A stretch of DNA of 64,000 nt. Source: a virus. Both the position numbers and the translations under genes were made by a program. The stretch lies in the UHGV virus genome UHGV-0211740; one strand, written 5' to 3'. Numbering within the stretch: position 1 is the stretch's first letter; each line of letters begins with the position of its first letter. Under the pieces are notes generated by a model that saw only the letters and a program-made list of their open reading frames with translations, ran no database searches and was not told the DNA's origin. Shown piece by piece: positions 7,895 to 44,468 of this stretch.

Positions 7895-8185
7895 TTACAA
7901 CTTGTTGTCGATAGTTTTTAAAATATCTACTGCAAGATCTGCCATTTTACGAACATACTCTGCAAACTCAACAGGATCCTTGATCAATGAGTTCACAGGG
8001 TCATACCCTAAAGCGTTTAAAATGGCTACAGCATCCACGACCTTCTCATCATTTGCGAAGATCTCACCGTCAAACTTGTAGGTCCATTTTGAGTCAATCT
8101 TGGCAGGGAAGGATTGGTCAATGCTTATTGCACCATCCTTTTTAAACGCTCCGGTGTTATCAGTGTCCAGAACTAAATCCATCAT
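7895..8185 (-). CDS. hypothetical protein
   Basis: 96-aa ORF. Confidence 0.45.
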   Translation of the reverse strand: MMDLVLDTDNTGAFKKDGAISIDQSFPAKIDSKWTYKFDGEIFANDEKVVDAVAILNALGYDPVNSLIKDPVEFAEYVRKMADLAVDILKTIDNKL

Positions 8186-8202
8186 GTTGGTACCTCACTA
8201 TT

Positions 8203-8616
8203 TCAGTTTAGCTTTTCTTCAACAACCCCGTAGCTTGGAGCAGAGTCAAGAGCTTTCTGGCTTAAAAGTGGTGTAGCAGAATCTGCAAACGGTGTCCAAG
8301 TTTTTGTTCTGGCATTCCAGTAATGCTTCACTCTAGAATCTGGATGCACTATAACAAAAACTTTTTCACTTGTCAACACATTAATTTCTTCCACACCCTT
8401 GCTAACAATTTCCCCATCATAGCCTCCAGTCTGGTAACCTTCGTACCAGGTCCTTGCATAAGCATATCCAGCCTGCCAGCATGCAGCCTCTTTAGAGGTG
8501 GAGACTACGTAGAAATCTTTCTCAAATTCAGGGATACGCCCTTGCTTTACGCTCCAGGCTCCGCGAATTTTCATGGTGACTTTGAAAAGTTTGTTCTTCA
8601 CACTACCGCTCCACAA
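8203..8616 (-). CDS. hypothetical protein
   Basis: 137-aa ORF. Confidence 0.45.
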   Translation of the reverse strand: MWSGSVKNKLFKVTMKIRGAWSVKQGRIPEFEKDFYVVSTSKEAACWQAGYAYARTWYEGYQTGGYDGEIVSKGVEEINVLTSEKVFVIVHPDSRVKHYWNARTKTWTPFADSATPLLSQKALDSAPSYGVVEEKLN

Positions 8617-8893
8617 TCTCTGCGTCTGTTCCTACACCAAAGGCATAGTAAGACTCTTCCCCAAAGTAATACTCTGGTGCACCTGCCTTAATTAAGTCTG
8701 AGCCGTAGATAAATACCACACTGTGGGATACAGTGGATTGCAGTGTGGAGTGCAGCTGACGAATAGGATCATCCTCAGGCAACTCTTCGAAGTATACAGC
8801 AGGTACTACCTTTCCCTTCAGAAAGGATTGCCCCAAGTAGAGGTTAGAGTCAAGAATTTTAACCTTCACAGTCGTCCTCCACGATCTCAACAT
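8603..8893 (-). CDS. hypothetical small protein (paralog family A)
   Basis: KVKILDSNLYLGQ N-terminus and GSDLIKAGA..AEIVE motifs shared with 8859..9083 and 12420..12683. Confidence 0.45.
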   Translation of the reverse strand: MLRSWRTTVKVKILDSNLYLGQSFLKGKVVPAVYFEELPEDDPIRQLHSTLQSTVSHSVVFIYGSDLIKAGAPEYYFGEESYYAFGVGTDAEIVER

Positions 8894-9083
8894 CTTCCCC
8901 TAAGGCAAAGTTGTAAGTCCACTGACTGTCAAAGCATTCCTGAGATGCGCCAGCGGCAATAAGATCTGACCCTTTTATTTTTAAAAGGTCAGGGTAATCT
9001 TCATTAGGAACAGCGGTAAACACTTTTCCAACTAAAGGCTCTTGACCAATATAGAAGTTTGAATCTAAAACTTTAACTTTCAT
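8859..9083 (-). CDS. hypothetical small protein (paralog family A)
   Basis: 74-aa ORF; MKVKVLDSNFYIGQ, GSDLIAAGA, VEIVED. Confidence 0.45.
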   Translation of the reverse strand: MKVKVLDSNFYIGQEPLVGKVFTAVPNEDYPDLLKIKGSDLIAAGASQECFDSQWTYNFALGEDVEIVEDDCEG

Positions 9084-9367
9084 CAGCGGTCTCCATCGGG
9101 CGGCTGTGGAACGTAAACACTGTTACGAATCTCGTCAGCAGTGTAGTAACAAGTTTTCCCCTCTCTGTCTCTGGCAGCAATGTATTCAGCTATACCAATA
9201 AGTGCCATAGACTTGGTGGCGTATCTTTTAAGCTCGTTAGCTCCCCAGCAAAATCTCTGCCAAAACGGTATGAAACCGAATAGGTACACTTTCTGTTTCA
9301 CTATCCAATAAGTGCCTTTACAGATCACTTTAAACTCTGCAGCACTGTTGCTAACACCATTGCTCAT
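9083..9367 (-). CDS. hypothetical protein
   Basis: 94-aa ORF. Confidence 0.4.
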   Translation of the reverse strand: MSNGVSNSAAEFKVICKGTYWIVKQKVYLFGFIPFWQRFCWGANELKRYATKSMALIGIAEYIAARDREGKTCYYTADEIRNSVYVPQPPDGDR

Positions 9368-10068: not shown

Positions 10069-10352
10069 TTTCTGGTCCTCTTCTTGGATTTTTGTGGAGA
10101 AACGCTTTCTGCAATACGAGACAAACGTTCTTCCGAAGCCTTGCCTATTCCAGGTTTTTTGAGGGGATTATCTTTACGACCGCAATCCAATTGGATATCG
10201 GACACCTCTCCCGCTTTGTAAGTCAATTCTAACAAAAGGTTGTCGTCCTTGTCAAATGTTTTTACGGTAAATTTTTTATCGTCTTCCTTAACCTCATACC
10301 GTGTTCCTGCAGTGTATAGCATAGTTCCATCAGCATAGGATATCCAGATCAT
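10065..10352 (-). CDS. hypothetical protein
   Basis: 95-aa ORF. Confidence 0.4.
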   Translation of the reverse strand: MIWISYADGTMLYTAGTRYEVKEDDKKFTVKTFDKDDNLLLELTYKAGEVSDIQLDCGRKDNPLKKPGIGKASEERLSRIAESVSPQKSKKRTRK

Positions 10353-10696
10353 TGGGCCTTCTCCTGTTGCAACAGCATTAATTCCTTGTTGGATATTTTT
10401 ACTGCAGTTTTTATTGTACCATCTTCACGGAACCACGACCAGAACTCCACGGTGTCGCCACTATCAAGCAAAGCATGCCCGTGATAAAAGTCTTTGTCTT
10501 TCGATAGTTTCTTATCTATATCTGCATCAACACATTCGTGATCCATAGCATTCTGTCTGAATGCATCGGTTATGCCAACACATGCCTTGTTCTCAAGGCT
10601 GGTATATCCTACATCTTTTAATTCAGTTTCCCAAGTCCAGTAGCCTATAAAAGCTACAACAGCTACCCACATTAATAATGTTTTAATCTTTGGCAT
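10349..10696 (-). CDS. putative secreted or membrane-anchored protein
   Basis: 115-aa ORF with N-terminal hydrophobic segment LLMWVAVVAFIGYWTW. Confidence 0.4.
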   Translation of the reverse strand: MPKIKTLLMWVAVVAFIGYWTWETELKDVGYTSLENKACVGITDAFRQNAMDHECVDADIDKKLSKDKDFYHGHALLDSGDTVEFWSWFREDGTIKTAVKISNKELMLLQQEKAQ

Positions 10697-10758
10697 TCTC
10701 TCTACCTCTTTCTTAGTTTATTTCACTATGGCACATCCTTTGTGCCATATTTCACCCA

Positions 10759-11220
10759 CTACTTAAATAGTAGTTCAAAATAGTGCAAAATTAGCAGAAG
10801 TTGAACTACACCCAGTGCAACGGCGAGTATGTTAATCTTAGAATCGAAAAACTTCTTAACTTTTACTCTAAAGGGTTCCTTAATATCCTTTACGATTCTA
10901 TTTATAGATGATCTCACATCCCTGATTGCCATCCTAAACATGGGAGAAGGATCTTCCTTCTCTGTAACGGAATCGAAAACATACTCTCTTCGGTCATAAG
11001 GACCGCCAGCTCTGCGTATTAACCTCTCCACAGAGACCTCGAACGACACACCTGTAACGTAATCGTCTATAACAAGTAATGACGGGTCTTCACCATCAAG
11101 AGGTATCAAAGTTATCTTCCCAGATTTTGTTGAAATCTCTCCTTTTTCAAGCAAGGTGTACCAATGCTCTCTACCAAGACTGTTGAGGCACGTTTTTACA
11201 TATTTAACAAACATCGTCAC
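10759..11220 (-). CDS. hypothetical protein with C-terminal transmembrane segment
   Basis: 153-aa ORF ending ILAVALGVVQLLLILHYF. Confidence 0.4.
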   Translation of the reverse strand: MTMFVKYVKTCLNSLGREHWYTLLEKGEISTKSGKITLIPLDGEDPSLLVIDDYVTGVSFEVSVERLIRRAGGPYDRREYVFDSVTEKEDPSPMFRMAIRDVRSSINRIVKDIKEPFRVKVKKFFDSKINILAVALGVVQLLLILHYFELLFK

Positions 11221-12692: not shown

Positions 12693-13091
12693 TTACTGAA
12701 CAGAACGCGGAGCTGGGAAGGATAACTCTTCTAAAGAGAAGATTTCATTTCCTACCACCCAAGTTGCTGGATCATCTGGATCAACAGGTTGGATAATCAT
12801 TACCTCATCAACCTTGCACACACGTTTCCCACCTATGGTAGCGTCAGCCACTAACATACGCGGCTCTTCAGAAATGCACAGGTAGCCACCTCGGCCCACT
12901 GTTCCTTCTACAGGATCCTGCCCTTTGACAACGATGAATACCTTTTCTCCTGTGGCGATATTACTTTGCACACGGACAGTTTGACCAACTTTAGAGGTAC
13001 CTACCTTGGTGGCTTCAAACATTAAATCCCGAATTACTGTTGCATAGTTGCCGGAAACTTTCTTACCTTCTTTGGTGATCTCAATCTTCAT
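12693..13091 (-). CDS. hypothetical protein
   Basis: 132-aa ORF. Confidence 0.45.
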   Translation of the reverse strand: MKIEITKEGKKVSGNYATVIRDLMFEATKVGTSKVGQTVRVQSNIATGEKVFIVVKGQDPVEGTVGRGGYLCISEEPRMLVADATIGGKRVCKVDEVMIIQPVDPDDPATWVVGNEIFSLEELSFPAPRSVQ

Positions 13092-13360
13092 AATTTAGGC
13101 TCCTTAAATGAATCTATGTAGTCAATTAAATCCCAAGCATCGCGATGGGCTGTCAGAGGATATACTTCTCCGAGAGGGATCATAGCGGCAAGTCTATCAA
13201 AAACCCAGTCTGGACGCAACATTTTATGGTGATATTCCCACTCACCTTCTACAGACTTTTTCTGAGTGATCAGGATCTCTGTGTAGTGTTTAGCCTGTCT
13301 TGAGTAGATTGAAAATGACTTGTACATAAATGGCCCCTCTTGTTGAAAACAAGAATACAT
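13088..13360 (-). CDS. hypothetical protein
   Basis: 90-aa ORF. Confidence 0.4.
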   Translation of the reverse strand: MYSCFQQEGPFMYKSFSIYSRQAKHYTEILITQKKSVEGEWEYHHKMLRPDWVFDRLAAMIPLGEVYPLTAHRDAWDLIDYIDSFKEPKL

Positions 13361-13362
13361 AA

Positions 13363-13677
13363 CTACCAGGTCACTGTCAAGTAGGCAACTGTGTTATTTT
13401 TCTCTGGCGATATGCCAACAACATCCACTTGCAGACCCCCTGCCCTTAAATCTCCGACGATGTGTGGGAAGTAATCAGAGAGATGTGATGGAAGATTTAT
13501 CGAAAATCCGCACCCCAGAAAGCCTGCTAACGCTTTATTTTGTATCTCCCCTACAATCGCATCGTAAATAGCGTTAAGCTCGTCAGGAAGCGTCACAGGG
13601 CGTTTTAGCGCTAACCGGTGTAATTTGTCCTTAGCACTCATTTTCATTTCAGATCTACCTCTGGTGGTGCCAACCAC
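13363..13677 (-). CDS. hypothetical protein
   Basis: 104-aa ORF. Confidence 0.4.
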   Translation of the reverse strand: MVGTTRGRSEMKMSAKDKLHRLALKRPVTLPDELNAIYDAIVGEIQNKALAGFLGCGFSINLPSHLSDYFPHIVGDLRAGGLQVDVVGISPEKNNTVAYLTVTW

Positions 13678-34295: not shown

Positions 34296-35579
34296 TCATT
34301 CCAGAACCTCCCAAGTGTCAGGGTTAACATTTCGGACGCAGATGCCGACAGGGAATTGGTAGTTGTTGTCTTCTGTCCTTGCTTGATATTTGAAGGTGAC
34401 AAACTTGCCGATCATTTCCTGCATCCTGTCATAGCTACGCTCCTCGTGCGTGCCTTTCATCTTCATTTTAACAACGATACCTTCCTTGTCAACGCAGATA
34501 AGAACACCTTCATCATTCTTATCTTTCTCAACGTCAATAACTTTCACCTCAGCATCGTTGAACTTTTTCCATTTCAATGCTTCAGATGTTCGCTGACCAT
34601 ATTCATATTTACCGCAGAAGTTACGCATGATAGTACCTTCATATCCTTCTGACATGAATACACCAACAGATTCTTCGCAATGATCAACTGTGTACGCAAG
34701 CTCTGCGTCAACAACCTTGATATGGTCAAGCATCAGAGTGGTAATGGTATCTTCTGCATCCATAAGGTCCTTGCATCTTCCAGATTCTGTTTCCGGATCC
34801 CACCATACCTTGTCACTAGGGATGTCGAAAATATGATACTCTAAGTCATAGCTACAGTACCCTCCGTAACGCAAATCATCACGAACAGGCTCAACATCAA
34901 CAGGAATATCTACCTTATTGAAGTTTTTGTATGTTGATAAGCCTGCCTTAATTGCGGCATGACGGCGTTTTTTATCTGCCTCGTAGTCTTTATCTATCTC
35001 GGCCTGAATCTCTTCCTGTGTGCGCCACCGTTTAGCAAGAGACACTATTTTCTGCAGAGGCAGACCATGAATATAGATCTCTCCGTCGAGCTGTTTAATC
35101 CCGGTGGTGAAGTGGAAAGAACGAAGTTGCTCCAGAAGCTTTCCTTGAATAGGGTAGGACTTATTACCACGGGAAATAAATTTAGGCTCACCGTTTTGGA
35201 AAACAACCAGTAGACGAAGGCCATCTAACTTACGCAAGATCCAGCAAGGTAATTTAAGTGCCTTTCCACGCTTCAGGTAGTCATGCATCAGCATGGGTAA
35301 AAGGTCAACCCCCTGCTCGCAATCTTCCATATTTTCAACATACCCCAGACGGACTTGTTTTTCCCACTTACTGATCGCTTCCAGCTCAGCCTGTTGCTCA
35401 GCTGTAGTTTCATTGGCACGGCCCACGTTCTTAGGTGTGCAGATCGTCTCTTTGTATTGCAGTTTACCATCAAGCTTGCCAAACTCTACGATAACCTTAT
35501 CACCATCCGTGAATACTTTCCACTGTTGGTAGCTGCCATCTTTGTTCAGTGCGTACAGTGTTGTTTTGATCTGATGCAT
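34296..35579 (-). CDS. ATP-dependent DNA ligase
   Basis: Nucleotidyltransferase motif I KLDGLR, motif IV EGYEGTIM, motif V LKWKKF. Confidence 0.75.
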   Translation of the reverse strand: MHQIKTTLYALNKDGSYQQWKVFTDGDKVIVEFGKLDGKLQYKETICTPKNVGRANETTAEQQAELEAISKWEKQVRLGYVENMEDCEQGVDLLPMLMHDYLKRGKALKLPCWILRKLDGLRLLVVFQNGEPKFISRGNKSYPIQGKLLEQLRSFHFTTGIKQLDGEIYIHGLPLQKIVSLAKRWRTQEEIQAEIDKDYEADKKRRHAAIKAGLSTYKNFNKVDIPVDVEPVRDDLRYGGYCSYDLEYHIFDIPSDKVWWDPETESGRCKDLMDAEDTITTLMLDHIKVVDAELAYTVDHCEESVGVFMSEGYEGTIMRNFCGKYEYGQRTSEALKWKKFNDAEVKVIDVEKDKNDEGVLICVDKEGIVVKMKMKGTHEERSYDRMQEMIGKFVTFKYQARTEDNNYQFPVGICVRNVNPDTWEVLE

Positions 35580-35848: not shown

Positions 35849-36143
35849 TGCAGTCCTCCTTCTCTAATAGGTCTTTTATCGGGTAAACAAGTAGGTGTGG
35901 ATCGTAATAATTTATAGTTTTATTCTGCCACACTATGAACTTAATTACAACTAAATTTACCACATCTTTATCTCCATGTAGTCCAACACACAGATTTGTC
36001 CATATTTTGTGGTTGAAGACCTTACTGTCGATGTAGATCTTAGTGTCAAACTTATCCTCTATCCTGCCTATAAGTTTAACCAATTCTTTCATCTGATCCC
36101 CAAACACAGCATCGTTTTCAAGATACCTAGAGTGCTTGTACAT
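35835..36143 (-). CDS. hypothetical protein
   Basis: 102-aa ORF. Confidence 0.4.
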   Translation of the reverse strand: MYKHSRYLENDAVFGDQMKELVKLIGRIEDKFDTKIYIDSKVFNHKIWTNLCVGLHGDKDVVNLVVIKFIVWQNKTINYYDPHLLVYPIKDLLEKEDCNAVI

Positions 36144-36206
36144 AACTAACTACCTCACTTTCCTACTTTCCACAACAGATAAAGCCGGGTGACCCCGGCT
36201 ATGTTG

Positions 36207-36920
36207 TTAAATATACTCTGTTACATCCTTGAAGCTTGAAGGCTTCATAATCTTACCTTTGCTGTCAAGGAAGATGATAACCTTATTACCGTTGTAGAAT
36301 TCTTCTTTAGCAACAAAACCTTCATATCTACCATCGAAGCGTCGCTCAAGATCTTTAATCTCTAACTCTACAAGTTGTTCAACAGGCATATCTGCACTGG
36401 CACCGTGTGAATACCGTAGATGGTTGACCCGTGCAAACTTGCTGTCATTAGATTTGAGAACCTTCCGCATCATCCCGCACACATCACCGCGAAGCTGGAA
36501 TAGCAAAGCTGTTGACAACTCCGCCAGGCGGTAAGCAGAAGCTTTTTGCTTGGAGGTGTTTTTTGCAGCGATCAGTGTGTCATAGAACTCACCGATCTTA
36601 AACTTAAGACCTCGCGGATTATCAAACAGGTTTGACCACTTTTCATGATTATCATTAACAAGATAAGCGGCATAGCTTGTAACAACATGAAGATCGCAGG
36701 CCTCTTTTAGCAGATGATCTCCACCATCACCTTTCTCCAGCTCTTCCAAAACCTCATTAAACTCTTCCTCAATGAAGCTAAGTTGTAATTCGAATGGTGT
36801 GTATGATTTTTTCACTTTAGCTGCCACACGGTTCCAGTTTTCCACCCAGTTGGCAGACCAAAGGTAGTTTTCAGGTTGGGACAGTTTTTCCAGATTGTCA
36901 ATTAACTTAGTATTCAGCAT
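36207..36920 (-). CDS. hypothetical protein, possible MazG-like nucleotide pyrophosphohydrolase
   Basis: 237 aa; acidic helix FIEEEFNEVLEELEK resembles the metal-binding EExxE motif of all-alpha NTP pyrophosphatases; weak. Confidence 0.3.
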   Translation of the reverse strand: MLNTKLIDNLEKLSQPENYLWSANWVENWNRVAAKVKKSYTPFELQLSFIEEEFNEVLEELEKGDGGDHLLKEACDLHVVTSYAAYLVNDNHEKWSNLFDNPRGLKFKIGEFYDTLIAAKNTSKQKASAYRLAELSTALLFQLRGDVCGMMRKVLKSNDSKFARVNHLRYSHGASADMPVEQLVELEIKDLERRFDGRYEGFVAKEEFYNGNKVIIFLDSKGKIMKPSSFKDVTEYI

Positions 36921-36933
36921 TAAAGGTCTCCTT

Positions 36934-37695
36934 TTAAAGTTCCATGAAGTTTTCTACAGTTTCAATCAATGTTTTATCAGAGAAAGCGTCAACCGCACCG
37001 TTAAACCAAACAGGAATGCCGCGATCCTCATACTGGTAAATGTCACTACGTGAAATGCCATTCTCCTCCAAATGCTGTGAGTCATATTTGTTAACAATCA
37101 ACAGCTTAGTTCCCTTGTTACAGGCAGGGAACAGCTCCCAGTTAAAATTGATAACTGTGTTTGAGCACCCTACAAGGATAACCATATCATTGCTTGTCAG
37201 AGAAGTCAACAGATCATACATGTCTGTATACTTTGGAGCAACTTCTCCGAAGAACACCACATTAGGCTTAACCCAAATATACTCGCCTGCATCTACCTCC
37301 GAATACCCAATGTCTTTAATGACATTGCTTCCTTCATCGTCCTCATAGACTATTTCTGGCAAATACCCGTGGACATGTAAAATATCTTCATGTTTTACAC
37401 CAGCACGCTCTAGCAAATCATCTACATTGGTGGTCAGGTTGATCACACGACCAGACCAACGAGAATACCACTCTGCGATCCGGAGATGTGCAAGATTAGG
37501 CTCAACACTGCCCAAAGCTATACGCCGTGCATTGTAAAAGTCATGCACCTTATAATAGTTCTTGGCAAAGGTGTGGATGTTACACACCTCATCGATGCTG
37601 AAATTCTCCCACATTGCAGTGCTACCAGATCGAAAGGTGGGGATACCGGATTCAGCACTCAAGCCAGCACCAGAGATAACAATCAGTCGTCGCAT
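36934..37695 (-). CDS. Sir2-family NAD-dependent protein (sirtuin-like)
   Basis: N-terminal GAGLSAESGIPTFR Rossmann motif and downstream HG catalytic dyad; no Zn-binding Cys pairs. Confidence 0.75.
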   Translation of the reverse strand: MRRLIVISGAGLSAESGIPTFRSGSTAMWENFSIDEVCNIHTFAKNYYKVHDFYNARRIALGSVEPNLAHLRIAEWYSRWSGRVINLTTNVDDLLERAGVKHEDILHVHGYLPEIVYEDDEGSNVIKDIGYSEVDAGEYIWVKPNVVFFGEVAPKYTDMYDLLTSLTSNDMVILVGCSNTVINFNWELFPACNKGTKLLIVNKYDSQHLEENGISRSDIYQYEDRGIPVWFNGAVDAFSDKTLIETVENFMEL

Positions 37696-37703
37696 AGGTG
37701 TCC

Positions 37704-38051
37704 TCAGTAAATGTTCTGTTTAATCTCTATTCCAAACTTTTTGAACGAATCTGCAGCAAGCATAAATTTACGAGCTGCCGATGGGTTAGAAGTATGCACG
37801 AAAATCTTCACGTTGTCAACCACAGGTGGCTTGCCAAATACAAATAGCTCTTCCAGTCTCAATAAAACAGCATATCCGTCTTGATCAGAGTCTTCACCCA
37901 AATCGTGGTCAAAGAACCACTCTGTCACTCTTCGATACATTTTAGCAGAATTATTAAGAAACTCCATAGCCTCTTGTGAGGTTTTAAACCAAATTGCATC
38001 TGCCTGTCCGTAGTCAGCTGGGTTACGCAAATCATCTATCCAAACTTTCAT
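37704..38051 (-). CDS. hypothetical protein
   Basis: 115-aa ORF immediately upstream of the Sir2 gene. Confidence 0.4.
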   Translation of the reverse strand: MKVWIDDLRNPADYGQADAIWFKTSQEAMEFLNNSAKMYRRVTEWFFDHDLGEDSDQDGYAVLLRLEELFVFGKPPVVDNVKIFVHTSNPSAARKFMLAADSFKKFGIEIKQNIY

Positions 38052-38059
38052 ACATACCT

Positions 38060-38668
38060 CTAAAAATTTTCTATCGGTGTTTTTGAAGATAAAGCTAAAA
38101 CTATCTTATTCTCAATTCTTCGTAATCCTAATAGCAACCTACTATCATCTACAGTTTTAATCAAGTCTCTAAGAAGTTGCAGTTTACATTCTAAGTATCT
38201 CATGTGTGCCTCAATCTGCGTGGGGAAGGTTCCAAGATAAACCTGCGTGTCCTTAACCCCATCTTTGCAATAGGCAGCAAAAGATGGGCCTTTTCTTCTT
38301 ACTCCCATCAAACACTCCCCTCTTTGCGGCATCCTTGCTACAAAGAAGTTGTTTATTTCCCGGGGAACAAAAATACACGCTTCTGGGCAGTATATAAGAT
38401 TATTCTCGAAGAGAATATCTTTATCTAAAAATTTATCCCGCCAATCTTGTTTTTCCATCCAACGCTTGAAGTTGCTGAAGATTTTCCATTCTTCACAAAC
38501 TTCTACCATAGCATAAGCTTCAAATTTCTTGTTTTTAAGGTAGCACCTCCCTAGCATATTTGACCACGTCATATAAAAAGGACACATTATTCTCTTTCCA
38601 GTATCCTTGTCCAAAACCCTGACAGGATAGTCTGCATCATTAACACCAACACCATGTACAAGTTTCAT
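38060..38668 (-). CDS. putative homing-endonuclease-like protein with AP2-type DNA-binding segment
   Basis: YLGTFPTQIEAHMRY resembles the AP2 domain found in phage HNH homing endonucleases; weak. Confidence 0.35.
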   Translation of the reverse strand: MKLVHGVGVNDADYPVRVLDKDTGKRIMCPFYMTWSNMLGRCYLKNKKFEAYAMVEVCEEWKIFSNFKRWMEKQDWRDKFLDKDILFENNLIYCPEACIFVPREINNFFVARMPQRGECLMGVRRKGPSFAAYCKDGVKDTQVYLGTFPTQIEAHMRYLECKLQLLRDLIKTVDDSRLLLGLRRIENKIVLALSSKTPIENF

Positions 38669-38712
38669 ACAGACCTCTTAAGCTGAAATGATTAAAAAGA
38701 ACTTCCCCTTCT

Positions 38713-39669
38713 TCATTGCATATAGTCCTCGTTGTGGAAATAGTAGTCAAGTATCTCACGACGTTCCTGCTCAAGGAGGCAGTTCCACACATCCTCTGTG
38801 TAGTTGTTACGAATGAAGTTTACCATGCCATAAAACTCTTCGTCAATACGTTTAAAGATATCCTCATCCCAAATCTTCCAAGCTCTCCCTCTCATTACGG
38901 CCTTCCGTGCCAGGTAGTATGGAGATTTGATCTTCAACTGCAGGTCATAAGGGTAGTAAGGATTACGGATCATGTACCCTTCGCCCCTTGTTTCTGCAGC
39001 TAATTCTTTTGCATAGCTGAACGGAATTTCACGCACAGTGTGAGGACGTTTTGCACCAAGATACTTGGCAATACCGTCTAAAGCCGCTTCTGGTAGCATT
39101 ATTCCAGAATCATTGTATCTACAACCTATCAAATACGCACCATGATCCTCATGAACAATATGCGGGTCTGAAGGGTGACAAATTTCAAACATAAATGTCA
39201 TGTTTTCATGGCCCATAACCTTCTTGATAAGATCTAAATTGCCACATTGCTCCTGAATGGTTTCCTTTGCAAGGTTACAATATGGAGAATCAAGAGACCC
39301 AGTCGTTGAGAATAATAGTTCACCTTTATGAGAGGATACCACGCCAAGGAACCCGTTCTTTTTCTCTACAGCCGTCACAAGCTTATTGTCAGGTAGGTTG
39401 GTTGAGTTTTCTCCCAAGTTAAACACTTTTGTGAAGGGCCATGCCACAACATTCCCCTCGTTACCGACAACAATGCCTCGGCACTCCAGTAGACGCGGAG
39501 AAAAATGCCATAAATTGTTGTAGAATACTTTTCTGGCATATTTGTAGATCTTTAATCCGAGATCTGGATAATACCGACTGGTTACAAGACCTTTATCCAC
39601 TAAATCATCTGCATTAAAATACTTCATCATGCGTTCCTCATTTGTCATTTTGTTCCACAATCTTCCCAC
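38713..39669 (-). CDS. RNA ligase, Rnl1 (T4 RnlA) family
   Basis: LLECRGIVV, KVFNLGEN, motif I VEKKNGF, motif IV EGYMIR and motif V LKIKS line up with T4 Rnl1. Confidence 0.75.
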   Translation of the reverse strand: MGRLWNKMTNEERMMKYFNADDLVDKGLVTSRYYPDLGLKIYKYARKVFYNNLWHFSPRLLECRGIVVGNEGNVVAWPFTKVFNLGENSTNLPDNKLVTAVEKKNGFLGVVSSHKGELLFSTTGSLDSPYCNLAKETIQEQCGNLDLIKKVMGHENMTFMFEICHPSDPHIVHEDHGAYLIGCRYNDSGIMLPEAALDGIAKYLGAKRPHTVREIPFSYAKELAAETRGEGYMIRNPYYPYDLQLKIKSPYYLARKAVMRGRAWKIWDEDIFKRIDEEFYGMVNFIRNNYTEDVWNCLLEQERREILDYYFHNEDYMQ

Positions 39670-39748
39670 ACAAACAGTATCATGTCAACACTTGAAATGC
39701 TCAAAAGAACACGGTATACTGTCGTTAAAATTAAAACGGAGGGTCGCT

Positions 39749-40159
39749 ATGTCTAAAATGCTATATATCGTGCGTGGTCTACCAGGGTCTGGCAAATCAA
39801 CACTGGCAAATGCGTTATCTTTAGAAGGTCTGTATCCACATTTTGAGAACGACATGTTCTGGTACGACGATGATGGAAATTACAACTGGGATGCAAGTAA
39901 AGTGACACTTGCTGCAAAATGGTGCAAAGATAATATAGAAGATATGATGCGTATGGGGTACGACCGTGTCGTGGTAAGCAACACATTCACAAAAGAAAAG
40001 CATGTGCAAGAGTATATTGACATGGCGATCCGTAATGGGTATAATTACACAGTAATCGTGGTGGAGAATCGCCACGGTAACAAAAGTATCCACAATGTTC
40101 CAGAAAAGGTTGTGGATCGTATGGAACGTGAACTGAAAAACTGTATTAAACTTAAATGA
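39749..40159 (+). CDS. P-loop kinase, putative polynucleotide 5-prime kinase
   Basis: Start refined to the ATG after a GGAGGG RBS; Walker A VRGLPGSGKST like the T4 Pnk kinase domain. Confidence 0.55.
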   Translation: MSKMLYIVRGLPGSGKSTLANALSLEGLYPHFENDMFWYDDDGNYNWDASKVTLAAKWCKDNIEDMMRMGYDRVVVSNTFTKEKHVQEYIDMAIRNGYNYTVIVVENRHGNKSIHNVPEKVVDRMERELKNCIKLK

Positions 40160-40166
40160 GGATAGT

Positions 40167-40721
40167 ATGAAATATTTTATAACAAGTGACACACACTTTC
40201 TCCACCAGCGTGTTATGGAGTTCGATTCTTGTCAAAAGCACAGATCGCAGTATAACCACGATCTTGATAGCATGAATGCAGGGATCATAGACAAGTGGAA
40301 CTCAATTGTGTCACCATGGGACACTGTGTTCCACTTGGGAGACATTGCATGCACTAAGGATAAGAATATCAACAACTTACTGCCTGAAATTCTAAATATG
40401 CTGAACGGACATATTATTCTTGTTCGTGGTAACCATGACACAAGGACGACTGTCAGAATTATGAAAGAGTTCTGTCATGAGGTTGTAGATTATTACGAGC
40501 TTCGCCACAACAAGAATCTGATCTGTATGAGCCATTACCAGTTTGCAACGTGGAACAGAAAGCCCCACGGATCAGTTCAACTGTTTGGTCATGCTCACGG
40601 AACCACACAACAGTTATTTGGCAGGCAGTTGGATGTTGGTTGGGATGTATGGGGTAGACTGTTACCACTAGAAGAGGCATACAGCCTTGCAATGAGTTTT
40701 GATATTGACAGCAGGGAGTAA
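40167..40721 (+). CDS. calcineurin-like metallophosphoesterase
   Basis: Motifs SDTHF, LGDIA, RGNHD and GHAHG of the binuclear metallophosphoesterase fold. Confidence 0.7.
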   Translation: MKYFITSDTHFLHQRVMEFDSCQKHRSQYNHDLDSMNAGIIDKWNSIVSPWDTVFHLGDIACTKDKNINNLLPEILNMLNGHIILVRGNHDTRTTVRIMKEFCHEVVDYYELRHNKNLICMSHYQFATWNRKPHGSVQLFGHAHGTTQQLFGRQLDVGWDVWGRLLPLEEAYSLAMSFDIDSRE

Positions 40722-40768
40722 TCCCTGCTATATTAAAGAAAATAGCCACACAAGGAGAATCAGGAGAT

Positions 40769-41119
40769 ATGAAAGATGAGGATAAGCTGCCCTATCTTAA
40801 AGTCCCACTTGGGATACTTTCTCTGTCGAAAGTTTTGAATACTACAACTGGAGAGGTGGTTATTCTTGATCTGTATGACAAGGTAGTATACTGCTACCTG
40901 CACAACTGGTATAAGCTTGGAGGAAATTCACGATTCACACCGAGCACAAGGAAAATTGCAGCTGATACAGGGATTAAGAAAACAAAAGCAGCAGAATGCG
41001 TTAGAACTTTAGAGTGTGCGGGGATAGTTGAAACTTCCACACAAGGGAGAGGGAAAAGATGCACATTTTCTAAAGTTTTACCACCAGAAGAAGTGATTCG
41101 CATGTCAACAACTGGTTAG
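40769..41119 (+). CDS. hypothetical protein, possible winged-helix DNA-binding protein
   Basis: 116 aa; STRKIAADTGIKKTKAAECVRTLECAGIV resembles a wHTH; lies just upstream of the palindrome array. Confidence 0.35.
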   Translation: MKDEDKLPYLKVPLGILSLSKVLNTTTGEVVILDLYDKVVYCYLHNWYKLGGNSRFTPSTRKIAADTGIKKTKAAECVRTLECAGIVETSTQGRGKRCTFSKVLPPEEVIRMSTTG

Positions 41120-41195
41120 ACCAGTAAAAACTTAAATATTTGTATTATAAAGGTATGTATGTTTTATGTCCACACCAGCACAAAGATTACAAACT

Positions 41196-41274
41196 GTCCG
41201 TGAGACGGACACTACTGTCCGCCACGCGGACACATCTGCCCGTAATACGGACACTAACTGTCCGTGATACGGAC
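41196..41274. promoter_or_regulatory. array of four 15-bp palindromic operator-like sites
   Basis: GTCCGTGAGACGGAC, GTCCGCCACGCGGAC, GCCCGTAATACGGAC and GTCCGTGATACGGAC at 41196, 41217, 41238 and 41260; 21-22 bp periodicity. Confidence 0.55.
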
Positions 41275-41779
41275 ACATAAAGAATATAACTAAAATAACT
41301 AAAGAATAAAAATAAAAAGATCTAGTACTTATTGTACTAAAGTGCATATACTTAACTTATGTAGAATATACTAGATCTAAAGTACTATGTTTTAAATTTA
41401 TTACTTACTGGTATAGTGTCGGCCCTTCATTGGCACTCGCCTATGAGGGGCGAGATGCCGGGCCTCCATAGTGCACACAATAACAGGCGTGCATACGTGC
41501 ATGGCTGTTCACATGTGTGGGAGCGAAGCTATAGCGCAGGCCAAAGGCCGAGCACTAATGTGGACCGCCGACGAAAGCTTGCCAGCGCAGTAAGGAGTCG
41601 GTTGGGAGTCTCCCGCGCGAGTTTGTTTAAAGTTTATGTGTGGAAACTGGCAAGAAGGCCTCTAAATCGCTCTACAGCTGTGTGAACTACACTGGGTAAG
41701 GCAATCACACCAGTTTGATAGAAAAGCTCGTTACAAAGCGATACAGTGAGTTTTTCTATAACCTGAAGAGGAGTCAGCT

Positions 41780-42358
41780 ATGAGCTCACGCAAACATGAC
41801 CGAGAAAAGATTGCAAAACGTTATCAGGATGAAGAACAGATGGAGAAAACTTTCAAGTGGAGGCCAGGTTTCCAGCGCAATCATTCGGACGCTCGTGATC
41901 GTAAGCATCCAGATAAGTGGTTAACACCGCCAAACGATGACATGCAAGTCGGTGATGAGAAGGAGTTGTCACCGGGGAAAGATGGCAACTACATTCGCAC
42001 TAAGGAAGCTGGTCCAAAGGATGACAGCTATCTTGTAGATAAGGTTCTTGCTAGTATTGATGTAGATGTTGATACTGTACGAGACACTTTCCTTGGTTGG
42101 TATCGCACAGGGTTTTTCGACATCAAGGCTATTCGTCGTGTTTGCGATATTAAAAAGTCTGCCTACGATGACGACTCTCTACATCGCACTCTAAGACAAT
42201 ATTCAGAGAGATACGGTCATCCAGTTATCACTCTTGACGATATTAACGAAGTGATGTATCATGTAGAGGTTGTTGCAGGTAGGTTCGGTGATGCATATCT
42301 CGGTATTCTTTCTGCAAAGGATGAGGTAATGTTAAATAAAATTTACTATGAACGCTGA
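41780..42358 (+). CDS. hypothetical protein
   Basis: 192-aa ORF, first long plus-strand ORF after the control region. Confidence 0.5.
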   Translation: MSSRKHDREKIAKRYQDEEQMEKTFKWRPGFQRNHSDARDRKHPDKWLTPPNDDMQVGDEKELSPGKDGNYIRTKEAGPKDDSYLVDKVLASIDVDVDTVRDTFLGWYRTGFFDIKAIRRVCDIKKSAYDDDSLHRTLRQYSERYGHPVITLDDINEVMYHVEVVAGRFGDAYLGILSAKDEVMLNKIYYER

Positions 42359-42557
42359 GGAGCGCTTAATGAACAACCCGGTAGCAAAGAACTGCAATAA
42401 GTTCAACAAGCCTGCAATTCACACTGACAGGAAAAAGAGCTGGTCTCCGGATATTGACGAGGAGCTTGAGGATTACTTCGAAGGCTTGGCCCTTAATGCA
42501 GATGAGATTGCGATTAAAGAGTACGCAGACAGGAAGGATAAGGCCGGAATCTGTTGA
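42348..42557 (+). CDS. hypothetical protein
   Basis: 69-aa ORF overlapping upstream stop. Confidence 0.35.
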   Translation: MNAEERLMNNPVAKNCNKFNKPAIHTDRKKSWSPDIDEELEDYFEGLALNADEIAIKEYADRKDKAGIC

Positions 42558-43659: not shown

Positions 43660-43734
43660 GCCCTGTTAGCTTAGTGGATAAAGCAGCGGCCTTCTAAGCC
43701 GTTGACACTGGTTCGAGTCCAGTACGGGGTGCCA
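43660..43734 (+). tRNA. tRNA-Arg (anticodon TCT)
   Basis: 7-bp acceptor stem, T-arm CTGGTTCGAGTCCAG, anticodon loop CTTCTAA, 3-prime CCA encoded. Confidence 0.75.
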
Positions 43735-43738
43735 AATC

Positions 43739-43825
43739 GGGGAGTTATACCGTAGAGGTAGCGGTGTAGACTGTAAATCTATTGTCATTGCGACTCGGGT
43801 GGTTCGACTCCATCACTCCCCACCA
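43739..43825 (+). tRNA. tRNA-Tyr (anticodon GTA)
   Basis: Acceptor GGGGAGT/ACTCCCC, anticodon loop CTGTAAA, long variable arm, T-loop GGTTCGACTCC, CCA encoded. Confidence 0.75.
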
Positions 43826-43936
43826 AAATCCCATATTTGTGATAAATAATATAGATAATGACATTGATGTTTATCGTCGTTTATACTAGTCCCTAACTGT
43901 TCGAAAATCAGTGTCATTATCAGTGTTGTTTATAAA

Positions 43937-44026
43937 AGAGAGTAGGGAGCATGGTGCTCAAGCGGTCTTGAAAACCGTCCCGTTGAGATATCCTCGATGA
44001 TGGTTCGATTCCATTACTCTCTGCCA
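43937..44026 (+). tRNA. tRNA-Ser (anticodon TGA)
   Basis: Perfect 7-bp acceptor AGAGAGT/ACTCTCT, anticodon loop CTTGAAA, long variable arm, T-loop TTCGATT, CCA encoded. Confidence 0.75.
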
Positions 44027-44124
44027 GATCGTGGATCATGAAATTAAGCGAGCGCCGGAAGCAGAACCGGATTAACAAATGTTACAGTCGTCATCGCCGA
44101 CTAGCAGCATGATCCACATAATAT

Positions 44125-44221
44125 GCTAGGTAAGCCCTTTGGCAAGGGCGAGGATTTTTAATCCTGAAAATAGACGAAGCAGTCGTTGAATACATAGGTG
44201 GTTCGATTCCATCGCCTAGCA
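44125..44221 (+). tRNA. atypical 97-nt tRNA-like gene (possible pseudo-tRNA or non-canonical tRNA)
   Basis: Perfect acceptor stem GCTAGGT/GCCTAGC and canonical T-arm GGTGGTTCGATTCCATC, but no clean 5-bp anticodon stem with 7-nt loop (closest is AGGA/TCCT with loop TTTTTAA) plus about 30 nt of extra internal sequence; no encoded CCA. Confidence 0.35.
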
Positions 44222-44228
44222 CCTTTTT

Positions 44229-44304
44229 GCTGATGTAGCACAATTGGTAGTGCAATTGATTTGTAATCAATAGGTTGCAGGTTCAAGTCCTGCCATCAGC
44301 ACCA
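44229..44304 (+). tRNA. tRNA-Thr (anticodon TGT)
   Basis: Acceptor GCTGATG/CATCAGC, anticodon stem-loop ATTGA-TTTGTAA-TCAAT, T-loop GGTTCAAGTCC, CCA encoded. Confidence 0.8.
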
Positions 44305-44305
44305 T

Positions 44306-44380
44306 GTCCCTGTAGCTGGAAGGTTCAAGCAAGCGACTCATAATCGCCAGACGGTGGTTCAATTCCACCCAGGGCCACCA
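44306..44380 (+). tRNA. tRNA-Met or Ile2 (anticodon CAT)
   Basis: Acceptor GTCCCTG/CAGGGCC with one mismatch, anticodon loop CTCATAA, T-arm GGTGGTTCAATTCCACC, CCA encoded. Confidence 0.7.
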
Positions 44381-44391
44381 AATTATAAATA

Positions 44392-44468
44392 CTCCGCGTA
44401 GCTCAGCTTGGTAGAGCGCCTGATTTGGGATCAGGAGGTCGAGTGTTCGAATCACTCCGTGGAGACCA
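44392..44468 (+). tRNA. tRNA-Pro (anticodon TGG)
   Basis: C1-G72 acceptor CTCCGCG/CGTGGAG, D-arm AGCTCAGCTTGGTAGAGC, anticodon loop TTTGGGA, T-loop GTTCGAATC, CCA encoded. Confidence 0.8.

Follow-up and report, generated by a model that had tools for sequence, protein, structure and literature searches.

tRNA cleavage is common among newly found defence systems, and the T4 enzymes Pnkp and Rnl1, acting against PrrC, are to our knowledge the only worked-out case of a phage mending tRNA that a host defence has cut. A gene cluster in virus genome UHGV-0211740, of which a stretch of 64,000 nucleotides (the window) was analysed, raises the question of whether its RNA ligase, P-loop kinase, and metallophosphoesterase (MPE) genes serve such a repair. 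An earlier note on this DNA had proposed a split RNA healing-and-sealing module of three open reading frames (ORFs), and all three were found where it had placed them: 38713..39669 on the minus strand (318 amino acids (aa) from a GTG), 39749..40159 on the plus strand (136 aa), and 40167..40721 on the plus strand (184 aa). The ligase is divergent from the kinase and the MPE directly follows the kinase, as that note had described; the spacing is 7 nt, and a GAGGA sequence overlaps the kinase stop codon.

Our analysis suggests that the cluster is likely a phage RNA end-healing and sealing set of separate small proteins. This is the best-supported reading, and it is based on homology and on a strong gene-neighbourhood signal over unrelated phages. 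The set is made up of two divergent transcription units, a ligase-headed operon on the minus strand and the kinase with the MPE on the plus strand. The region at 36000-42500 matched 126 phage records; the top match was a Vequintavirinae phage with 98.4% identity, and about 100 Escherichia coli rV5-like phages matched at 90-95%. The window therefore belongs to an rV5-type myovirus.

The Ligase Has the Catalytic Motifs of the Rnl1 Family

The ligase matched Pfam RNA_lig_T4_1 (PF09511) with 54.8 bits, against a cut-off of 28.3, and phrog_562 with an E value of 3e-66. A single-sequence search against PDB sequences yielded nothing useful, and a family profile was needed. Built from 15 ligases of the present and further phage loci, the profile matched T4 Rnl1 (2c5u) with an E value of 5.5e-31 over T4 residues 46-367, as well as Rnl3 (2e-5) and fungal Trl1 (0.01). 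In these 15 sequences, R51, K68, F70, K90-x-x-G93 (motif I), E149, E217-G218, K233, and K235 were invariant (numbered from the ATG at 39630), and the motifs lined up with KEDG, EGYV, KIK, LECRG, and EKFFN of T4. Nucleotidyltransferase motifs I (the Lys of KxxG), III (Glu), IV (EG), and V (KxK) were all present, together with the equivalents of the Rnl1-specific Arg54, Lys75, and Phe77. These results confirm the family assigned in the earlier note, with every catalytic motif in place, and ATP-dependent sealing is predicted. The start implied by its coordinates, at 39669, is probably not the one used: the ligase most likely starts at the ATG at 39630, because a GAGGAA Shine-Dalgarno-like sequence lies just upstream and the relative Bas53 carries a 305-aa annotation.

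The C-terminal domain is shorter than that of T4 Rnl1 (305 aa in total versus 374). The rV5-type ligases showed a 63-column gap in the C-terminal region compared with a 355-aa clade, which aligned with T4 to residue 367. The ligase is not an equivalog of T4 RnlA, as it scored 38.4 bits with NCBIfam TIGR02308 against a cut-off of 242.25.

The name of phrog_562, "RNA ligase and tail fiber protein attachment catalyst", has been copied in many relatives, and T4 gp63 also acts in tail-fibre attachment. If the present ligase were mainly such an attachment factor, its position beside the kinase and MPE would have no functional meaning. We find this barely credible, since the gene lies among nucleotide and nucleic-acid metabolism genes rather than structural genes, it is linked to the kinase and MPE far more often than chance would give, and the catalytic residues are invariant.

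A split form of the Rnl1-like ligase was observed in two metagenomic phage loci, with N- and C-terminal ORFs about 1 kb apart (L017, 8790..9245 and 10251..10856; L069, 11438..11890 and 12996..13658). The arrangement points to a mobile element (an intron, an intein, or an endonuclease gene) between the two halves.

The Kinase Resembles the Kinase Domain of T4 Pnk

The kinase matched Pfam AAA_33 (41.9 bits, cut-off 27), phrog_2071 (E 1e-57), and phrog_505, named "polynucleotide kinase" (E 5e-10). Its family of stand-alone proteins, about 130 aa in length, is very large: each of the 7,985 candidates scored was significant, with a typical identity of 50%. The family was present in 622 cultured phage records (Escherichia, Pseudomonas, Vibrio, Klebsiella, and Acinetobacter) and in thousands of metagenomic proteins. 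The homologues were 127-143 aa long. The 136-aa kinase consists of the kinase domain only and is devoid of a fused C-terminal HAD (DxDxT) 3'-phosphatase domain, which agrees with the description of the kinase and phosphatase as separate proteins.

The P-loop (G10-x-P-G-S-G15-K16-S17-T18) and D35 were present, and G10, G15, K16, T18, and D35 were invariant in 37 sequences, as were Ser77-Asn78 and Glu106-Asn107-Arg108. As with the ligase, the single-sequence search against PDB sequences gave nothing useful and a family profile was needed; with this profile, full-length matches were obtained to Pnkp1 (1.6e-5), T4 Pnk (2.4e-5), the tRNA kinase PSTK, and CthPnk, and other kinases matched at the P-loop only. 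D35 aligned with the general base Asp35 of T4 Pnk. The invariant R108, within an ENRHG motif, fell where the lid Arg122-126 of T4 lies, in a stretch that HMMER left unaligned. The fold was closest to polynucleotide and tRNA kinases, not to nucleoside monophosphate or small-molecule kinases. The P-loop kinase call was thus upheld, and in the comparison with T4 Pnk the protein proved to be the closest structural relative of its kinase domain. The protein is therefore described here as a putative minimal T4-Pnk-like enzyme, a predicted RNA 5'-OH kinase. Furthermore, the N terminus of phrog_8238 (737 positions) was matched by the kinase and its C terminus by the ligase, suggesting that fused kinase-ligase forms may exist.

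The Metallophosphoesterase Belongs to the aq_1665 Family

The MPE matched Pfam Metallophos (23.4 bits, cut-off 21.5) and phrog_547 (E 1e-50), and reached 26.9 bits with Metallophos_2, for which the cut-off is 27. Six motifs (DxH, GD, GNH[DE], H, GH, and GHxH) were invariant in 36 homologues, corresponding to D8, H10, G58-D59, G88-N89-H90(-D91), H123, G141-H142, and H144. The binuclear metal site is complete, and the structural model had a predicted local distance difference test (pLDDT) value of 96. The binuclear metallophosphoesterase type proposed earlier was thus borne out by all six motifs. Its closest relatives were neither the CthPnkp phosphatase domain nor lambda phosphatase; the protein belongs to the uncharacterised aq_1665 family, and the added likeness to bacterial Pnkp is therefore true only at the superfamily level. 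The Aquifex aeolicus protein aq_1665 itself (PDB 1XM7), a structural-genomics metallophosphoesterase of unknown function, is 25% identical to the MPE, and a literature search on its function found nothing. The MPE is a predicted 3'-end healing enzyme that may act as a 2',3'-cyclic phosphodiesterase and/or phosphatase.

The Genes Are Linked in Unrelated Phages

Gene linkage was analysed in 84 kinase loci (80 viral-metagenome loci, 3 metagenomic contigs, and Bas53), whose ORFs were searched with profiles seeded from the window proteins. An MPE homologue was found in 59 of the 84 loci, always on the kinase strand, and it lay within 2 kb of the kinase in 56 of these 59, compared with 17.5 expected under uniform placement in the locus (p 3e-26). 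The Rnl1-like ligase lay within 2 kb in 21 of the 24 loci having one (5.7 expected; p 6e-11). Both linkages also held in 48 non-redundant loci. In these 48 loci, 150 ORFs lying on the kinase strand and no more than 1.3 kb from the kinase were scanned with Pfam, and the commonest families were Metallophos (23), RNA_lig_T4_1 (15), Rnl2-type RNA_ligase (11), cREC (4), and NUDIX (3).

The ligase and kinase genes overlap in several loci, and in L003 the MPE, ligase, and kinase genes are contiguous and overlapping. An Erwinia Henunavirus has the order MPE, ligase, and kinase on one strand; a single small ORF separates the MPE from the ligase, and a Sir2 gene follows downstream. A Pseudomonas Pakpunavirus has neighbouring ligase and kinase genes, and its MPE gene is found on that same strand about 1 kb upstream, with nicotinamide phosphoribosyltransferase (Nampt), a phosphoribosyl pyrophosphate (PRPP)-synthetase-like gene, and a Macro domain alongside. 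The kinase-MPE-ligase cassette is widespread.

Two side observations were made in these loci. The genes for Nampt, the PRPP-synthetase-like protein, and the Macro domain protein lie directly beside the ligase-kinase cassette in L086 (4418..7929; Pseudomonas phage PsIn) and L003 (7099..10935); these nicotinamide adenine dinucleotide (NAD+) salvage genes and the Macro domain match the NAD+ theme of the sirtuin in the rV5-type cluster, described below. In addition, kinase-MPE cassettes with no Rnl1-like ligase within 10 kb showed a recurring gene of about 326 aa between the kinase and MPE and another of about 410 aa after the MPE (L004, 6402..7379 and 8070..9302; L002, 7082..8326; about 20 loci). 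Both ORFs were checked as hidden ligases and gave no Pfam match and only PHROG matches of unknown function; they may be further cassette components.

The Ligase Operon Contains cREC, Sirtuin, and MazG-Like Genes

The core of the split-module idea held, on the strength of the ligase motifs, the T4 Rnl1 match, and the linkage of the three families in many unrelated phages. The gene set of the earlier note was incomplete and its three-gene extent too narrow: beyond the ligase, the minus-strand operon continues with an inserted HNH endonuclease gene and then with genes for cREC, a CobB-like sirtuin, and a MazG-like protein, with spacers of 8-44 nt (Table 1). A GC-rich hairpin with T-runs lies 7 nt beyond the stop codon of the MazG-like gene, and this terminator-like site closes the ligase-cREC-sirtuin-MazG operon.

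Table 1. Positions of the genes and signals of the cluster and its surroundings in the window
Feature	Position	Strand	Remarks
Rnl1-family ATP-dependent RNA ligase	38713..39630	-	305 aa from ATG 39630; open frame to GTG 39669 (318 aa)
HNH homing-endonuclease gene	38060..38668	-	phrog_953 "HNH endonuclease", E 4e-69
cREC protein	37704..38051	-	Pfam PF20274, E 1.4e-16, 61.4 bits versus cut-off 27
CobB/Sirt5-like sirtuin (NAD+-dependent by family)	36934..37695	-	Pfam SIR2 E 4e-27; phrog_2162 E 5e-109
MazG-like nucleotide pyrophosphohydrolase	36207..36920	-	phrog_671 E 6e-22; no Pfam match
Terminator-like GC-rich hairpin	36183..36200	both strands	7-bp stem, 6 G-C pairs, T-runs on both strands
Divergent intergenic region	39631..39748		promoter-like site and GGAGG
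Stand-alone P-loop kinase, polynucleotide-kinase type, 136 aa, predicted RNA 5'-OH kinase	39749..40159	+	
Binuclear metallophosphoesterase (MPE), aq_1665 family, 184 aa, predicted 3'-end healing enzyme (2',3'-cyclic phosphodiesterase and/or phosphatase)	40167..40721	+	
tRNA array	43660..44468	+	context; ARAGORN, Rfam
ATP-dependent DNA ligase	34296..35579		0.6 kb past end of minus-strand operon

The HNH insertion (38052..38712, about 660 nt) fills precisely the space from the ligase stop to the start of cREC. Bas53 lacks it, and there the cREC and ligase genes share 4 nt at the cREC start and ligase stop; it is also missing from the 98%-identical relative and, in all, from about 125 relatives. 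The sole match of the HNH gene in the phage collection was the unrelated coliphage SKA64, with 87% identity. The HNH gene is a mobile insertion and no working part of the repair set. The start sequence of the cREC gene beside the insertion was found to have diverged.

cREC, a receiver-like domain with a predicted role in cyclic-phosphate processing, was defined in PMC7824862, where its linkage to RNA ligases in operons is also noted. In the present protein, the conserved motifs DD-x-R-x-P, DHDLG, and VH[ST]xN are all present: D6-D7, R9, P11, D48-H49-D50, H86, and N89 matched positions at least 80% conserved in 27 sequences, and position 87 is Thr, where Ser is commonest. cREC homologues lay within 10 kb of the kinase in 26 of the 84 loci, with the DD, DHD, and [ST] residues kept. 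A search of the Erwinia and Pseudomonas phage cassettes turned up no cREC, which makes it a common partner but not an obligatory one. The top PDB match of the sirtuin was E. coli CobB (1s5p, E 4e-21), with GAGxSxxSGIPxFR, TxNxD, and the HxHG catalytic histidine aligned; cysteines are missing at the positions of the CobB zinc module. A MazG-superfamily pyrophosphatase has been named as a component of the phage V5 RNA-repair neighbourhood (PMC9503650), and the co-transcribed CobB-like sirtuin and MazG-like protein probably act in the same pathway as the repair genes.

An ATP-dependent DNA ligase gene also lies near the cluster, and DNA ligase genes occur near the cassette in L003 and the Erwinia phage. 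T4 Pnk acts on DNA as well as RNA. The kinase and MPE might accordingly heal DNA ends (nicks with 5'-OH and 3'-phosphate) for the phage DNA ligase, like mammalian PNKP. We judge this very unlikely: the DNA ligase sits beyond the terminator-like site, the adjacent divergent gene encodes an RNA ligase, and the 25 families listed for close kinase neighbours contain two RNA ligase families and no DNA ligase domains.

A further explanation takes the locus for a counter-defence island concerned with nucleotide signals or NAD+/ADP-ribose instead of an RNA-repair set. Signalling nucleotides, cyclic or linear, would then be broken down by the MPE, and free nucleotides would be the substrates of the kinase; cREC, the sirtuin, and the MazG-like protein would process molecules derived from NAD+ or ADP-ribose, and the ligase would be a neighbour by position only. 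No substrate is known for the MPE family, the cassette in the Pakpunavirus locus and L003 has NAD+ salvage genes and a Macro domain next to it, and a published analysis termed the kinase only "nucleotide kinase" and put cREC and the sirtuin in an NAD+-ADP-ribose network (PMC9503650). However, the commonest kinase neighbours are RNA ligases of two families and the MPE, the overlap of ligase and kinase genes recurs in several loci, phrog_8238 was matched by both proteins, and polynucleotide and tRNA kinases are the nearest in fold to the kinase. This explanation is thus unlikely.

A Proposed Pathway of RNA Healing and Sealing

What the analysis establishes directly for the cluster is which families its proteins belong to, that the catalytic residues are intact, how the operon is built, and that the linkage of the genes is conserved. 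The healing-and-sealing reading draws on the ligase profile match to T4 Rnl1 with its invariant motifs, together with the complete metal site and confident model of the MPE; on the linkage of the kinase to the MPE and ligase beyond chance, with RNA ligases of two families among its close neighbours; on the match of both the kinase and ligase to phrog_8238; and on operon signals, namely spacings of 8-13 nt between genes, the 4-nt overlap in Bas53, and the terminator-like hairpin. Furthermore, the phage V5 neighbourhood has independently been read as RNA repair (PMC9503650).

In the proposed pathway, the damage would come from a host ribotoxin or defence nuclease, whose cut in tRNA or some other RNA would produce ends with a 2',3'-cyclic phosphate and a 5'-OH. 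The 136-aa T4-Pnk-like kinase would phosphorylate the 5'-OH, and the aq_1665-type MPE and/or cREC would open and remove the cyclic phosphate. The Rnl1-family ligase would then self-adenylate on Lys90 and transfer AMP to the 5'-phosphate, after which the break would be sealed. A published proposal has the sirtuin act like KptA/Tpt1 and use NAD+ to take off a 2'-phosphate that is left over. The substrates, the order of the steps, tRNA as the target, and a role against anticodon nucleases are given here as we infer them; the repaired RNA is probably tRNA.

Several points weigh against this pathway. Arg38 of T4 Pnk is replaced by Trp in the kinase (Trp or Phe at position 38 in the family), and Asp85 of T4 by Asn, the invariant N78. 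An Rnl1-like ligase was found within 10 kb in only 24 of the 84 kinase loci. The C-terminal domain of T4 Rnl1 confers tRNA specificity, and the present ligase is without about 60 residues of this region; tRNA targeting is therefore not assured. Literature searches on experiments with the rV5 module, on aq_1665, and on Vequintavirinae together with tRNA-targeting defence found no biochemical or genetic study of these proteins. In addition, retron Eco2, which nicks tRNA acceptor stems, still restricts Vequintavirinae (PMC12916289), and the module therefore gives no general immunity to tRNA attack.

A variant of the pathway would resemble the route of Trl1 and Tpt1 instead of that of T4. Fungal and plant tRNA splicing likewise combines a healing kinase, a cyclic phosphodiesterase, and an Rnl1-superfamily ligase with a subsequent NAD+-dependent step, to which the sirtuin has been proposed to be analogous. 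In this variant, cREC or the MPE would open the cyclic phosphate to a 2'-phosphate, the shortened Rnl1 ligase would seal, and the sirtuin would remove the junction 2'-phosphate with NAD+. The idea for the sirtuin was raised computationally by Iyer et al. 2022 (PMC9503650). The variant is tentative and rather unlikely, and the present results speak neither for it nor against it; if true, it would give a sirtuin a new catalytic role and provide first functions for cREC and the aq_1665 family.

Relation to Known Systems and Earlier Descriptions

The healing-and-sealing set was then compared with known systems. In common with T4 Pnkp and Rnl1, it has an Rnl1-family ligase with the same catalytic residues and a kinase with the conserved P-loop and Asp35 that is the closest structural relative of the T4 Pnk kinase domain. 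Unlike in T4, the kinase lacks the HAD phosphatase and has two T4 residues (Arg38 and Asp85) replaced, the MPE and/or cREC is the candidate for the 3' end, the ligase is of 305 aa with a shortened C-terminal domain, and a sirtuin and a MazG-like protein are added. In the bacterial Pnkp-Hen1 system (Clostridium thermocellum Pnkp), the kinase, metallophosphoesterase, and ligase form one polypeptide, whereas they are separate proteins here.

The closest description is that of Iyer, Burroughs, Anantharaman, and Aravind 2022 (PMC9503650, section 3.7.3), who predicted a sirtuin-centred, NAD+-utilising phage RNA-repair neighbourhood, type 2, in "Escherichia phage V5 and Proteus phage Mydo". Their description is purely computational and proposes that the sirtuin is analogous to KptA and removes 2'-phosphates. 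The phage group and gene set are the same (T4-like tRNA ligase, cREC, nucleotide kinase, sirtuin, MazG-superfamily pyrophosphatase, and calcineurin-like phosphoesterase), and all six genes lie within 36207..40721 of the window. Nothing essential differs; the window has the HNH gene in addition, inserted after the ligase and before cREC. The ligase, kinase, and MPE genes occur in over 100 GenBank relatives, under mixed labels ("RNA ligase", "polynucleotide kinase", "3'-phosphatase, 5'-polynucleotide kinase", "AAA family ATPase", "phosphoesterase", and "hypothetical protein"). For this phage group, annotations and a published prediction of the cluster thus already exist, little is added here beyond the GenBank annotation and PMC9503650, and the earlier note had overrated its novelty.

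The prediction can be tested directly, since E. coli K-12 supports growth of the rV5-like phages in the BASEL collection. Should the outcome be positive, three orphan families (the minimal Pnk-like kinase, the aq_1665-type MPE, and cREC) would acquire functions, and a new sirtuin activity might come to light.

A tRNA Array Lies Close to the Cluster

The earlier note had also placed a tRNA cluster about 3 kb away, and the array indeed begins 2.9 kb after the MPE. Its order is Arg(UCU), Tyr(GUA), Ser(UGA), a Lys(UUU)-like gene with a long insertion, Thr(UGU), Met/Ile(CAU), and Pro(UGG). ARAGORN called six tRNAs in the array, and five reached the gathering score of Rfam. The seventh, tRNA-like gene (44125..44221, plus strand) was missed by ARAGORN and scored 29.4 bits with the Rfam tRNA model, for which the cut-off is 29. 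Its anticodon loop, UUUUUAA, gives the anticodon UUU (Lys), and a 26-nt insertion lies in the variable region. The gene is conserved in Bas53, where it is tRNA-Lys in GenBank and undetermined by ARAGORN. tRNA-Lys(UUU) is the target of PrrC and PARIS, and the unusual phage copy may therefore be relevant. The repair genes may be linked in function to this array and to nucleases that cut anticodons.

The tRNA-Ser(UGA) called by ARAGORN (43937..44026, plus strand) fell below the Rfam tRNA gathering score, and its best match was the tRNA-Sec model with 43.6 bits, against a cut-off of 47. Such scores fit a class II tRNA whose variable arm is long.

Promoter-Like Sites and Host Labels of Relatives

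In the divergent intergenic region, a promoter-like site was found at 39692..39720 on the plus strand (TTGAAA-17-TATACT), identified by consensus match only, at 10 of 12 positions. A GGAGG sequence lies 5 nt 5' of the kinase ATG. A perfect sigma-70 consensus, TTGACA-17-TATAAT, was observed inside the kinase ORF at 40017..40045 on the plus strand, 120 nt 5' of the MPE start. It is one of two perfect sites in the 64-kb window, where 0.09 would be expected by chance, and Bas53 retains 11 of its 12 positions. It might serve the MPE gene as an internal promoter, or it might be there simply as a consequence of the coding sequence.

Three records of "Campylobacter phage" C11, C2, and D# (MG065652, MG065655, and MG065647), with Campylobacter jejuni as the stated host, were about 91% identical to E. 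coli rV5-like phages over region 36000-42500, and their host label looks doubtful.

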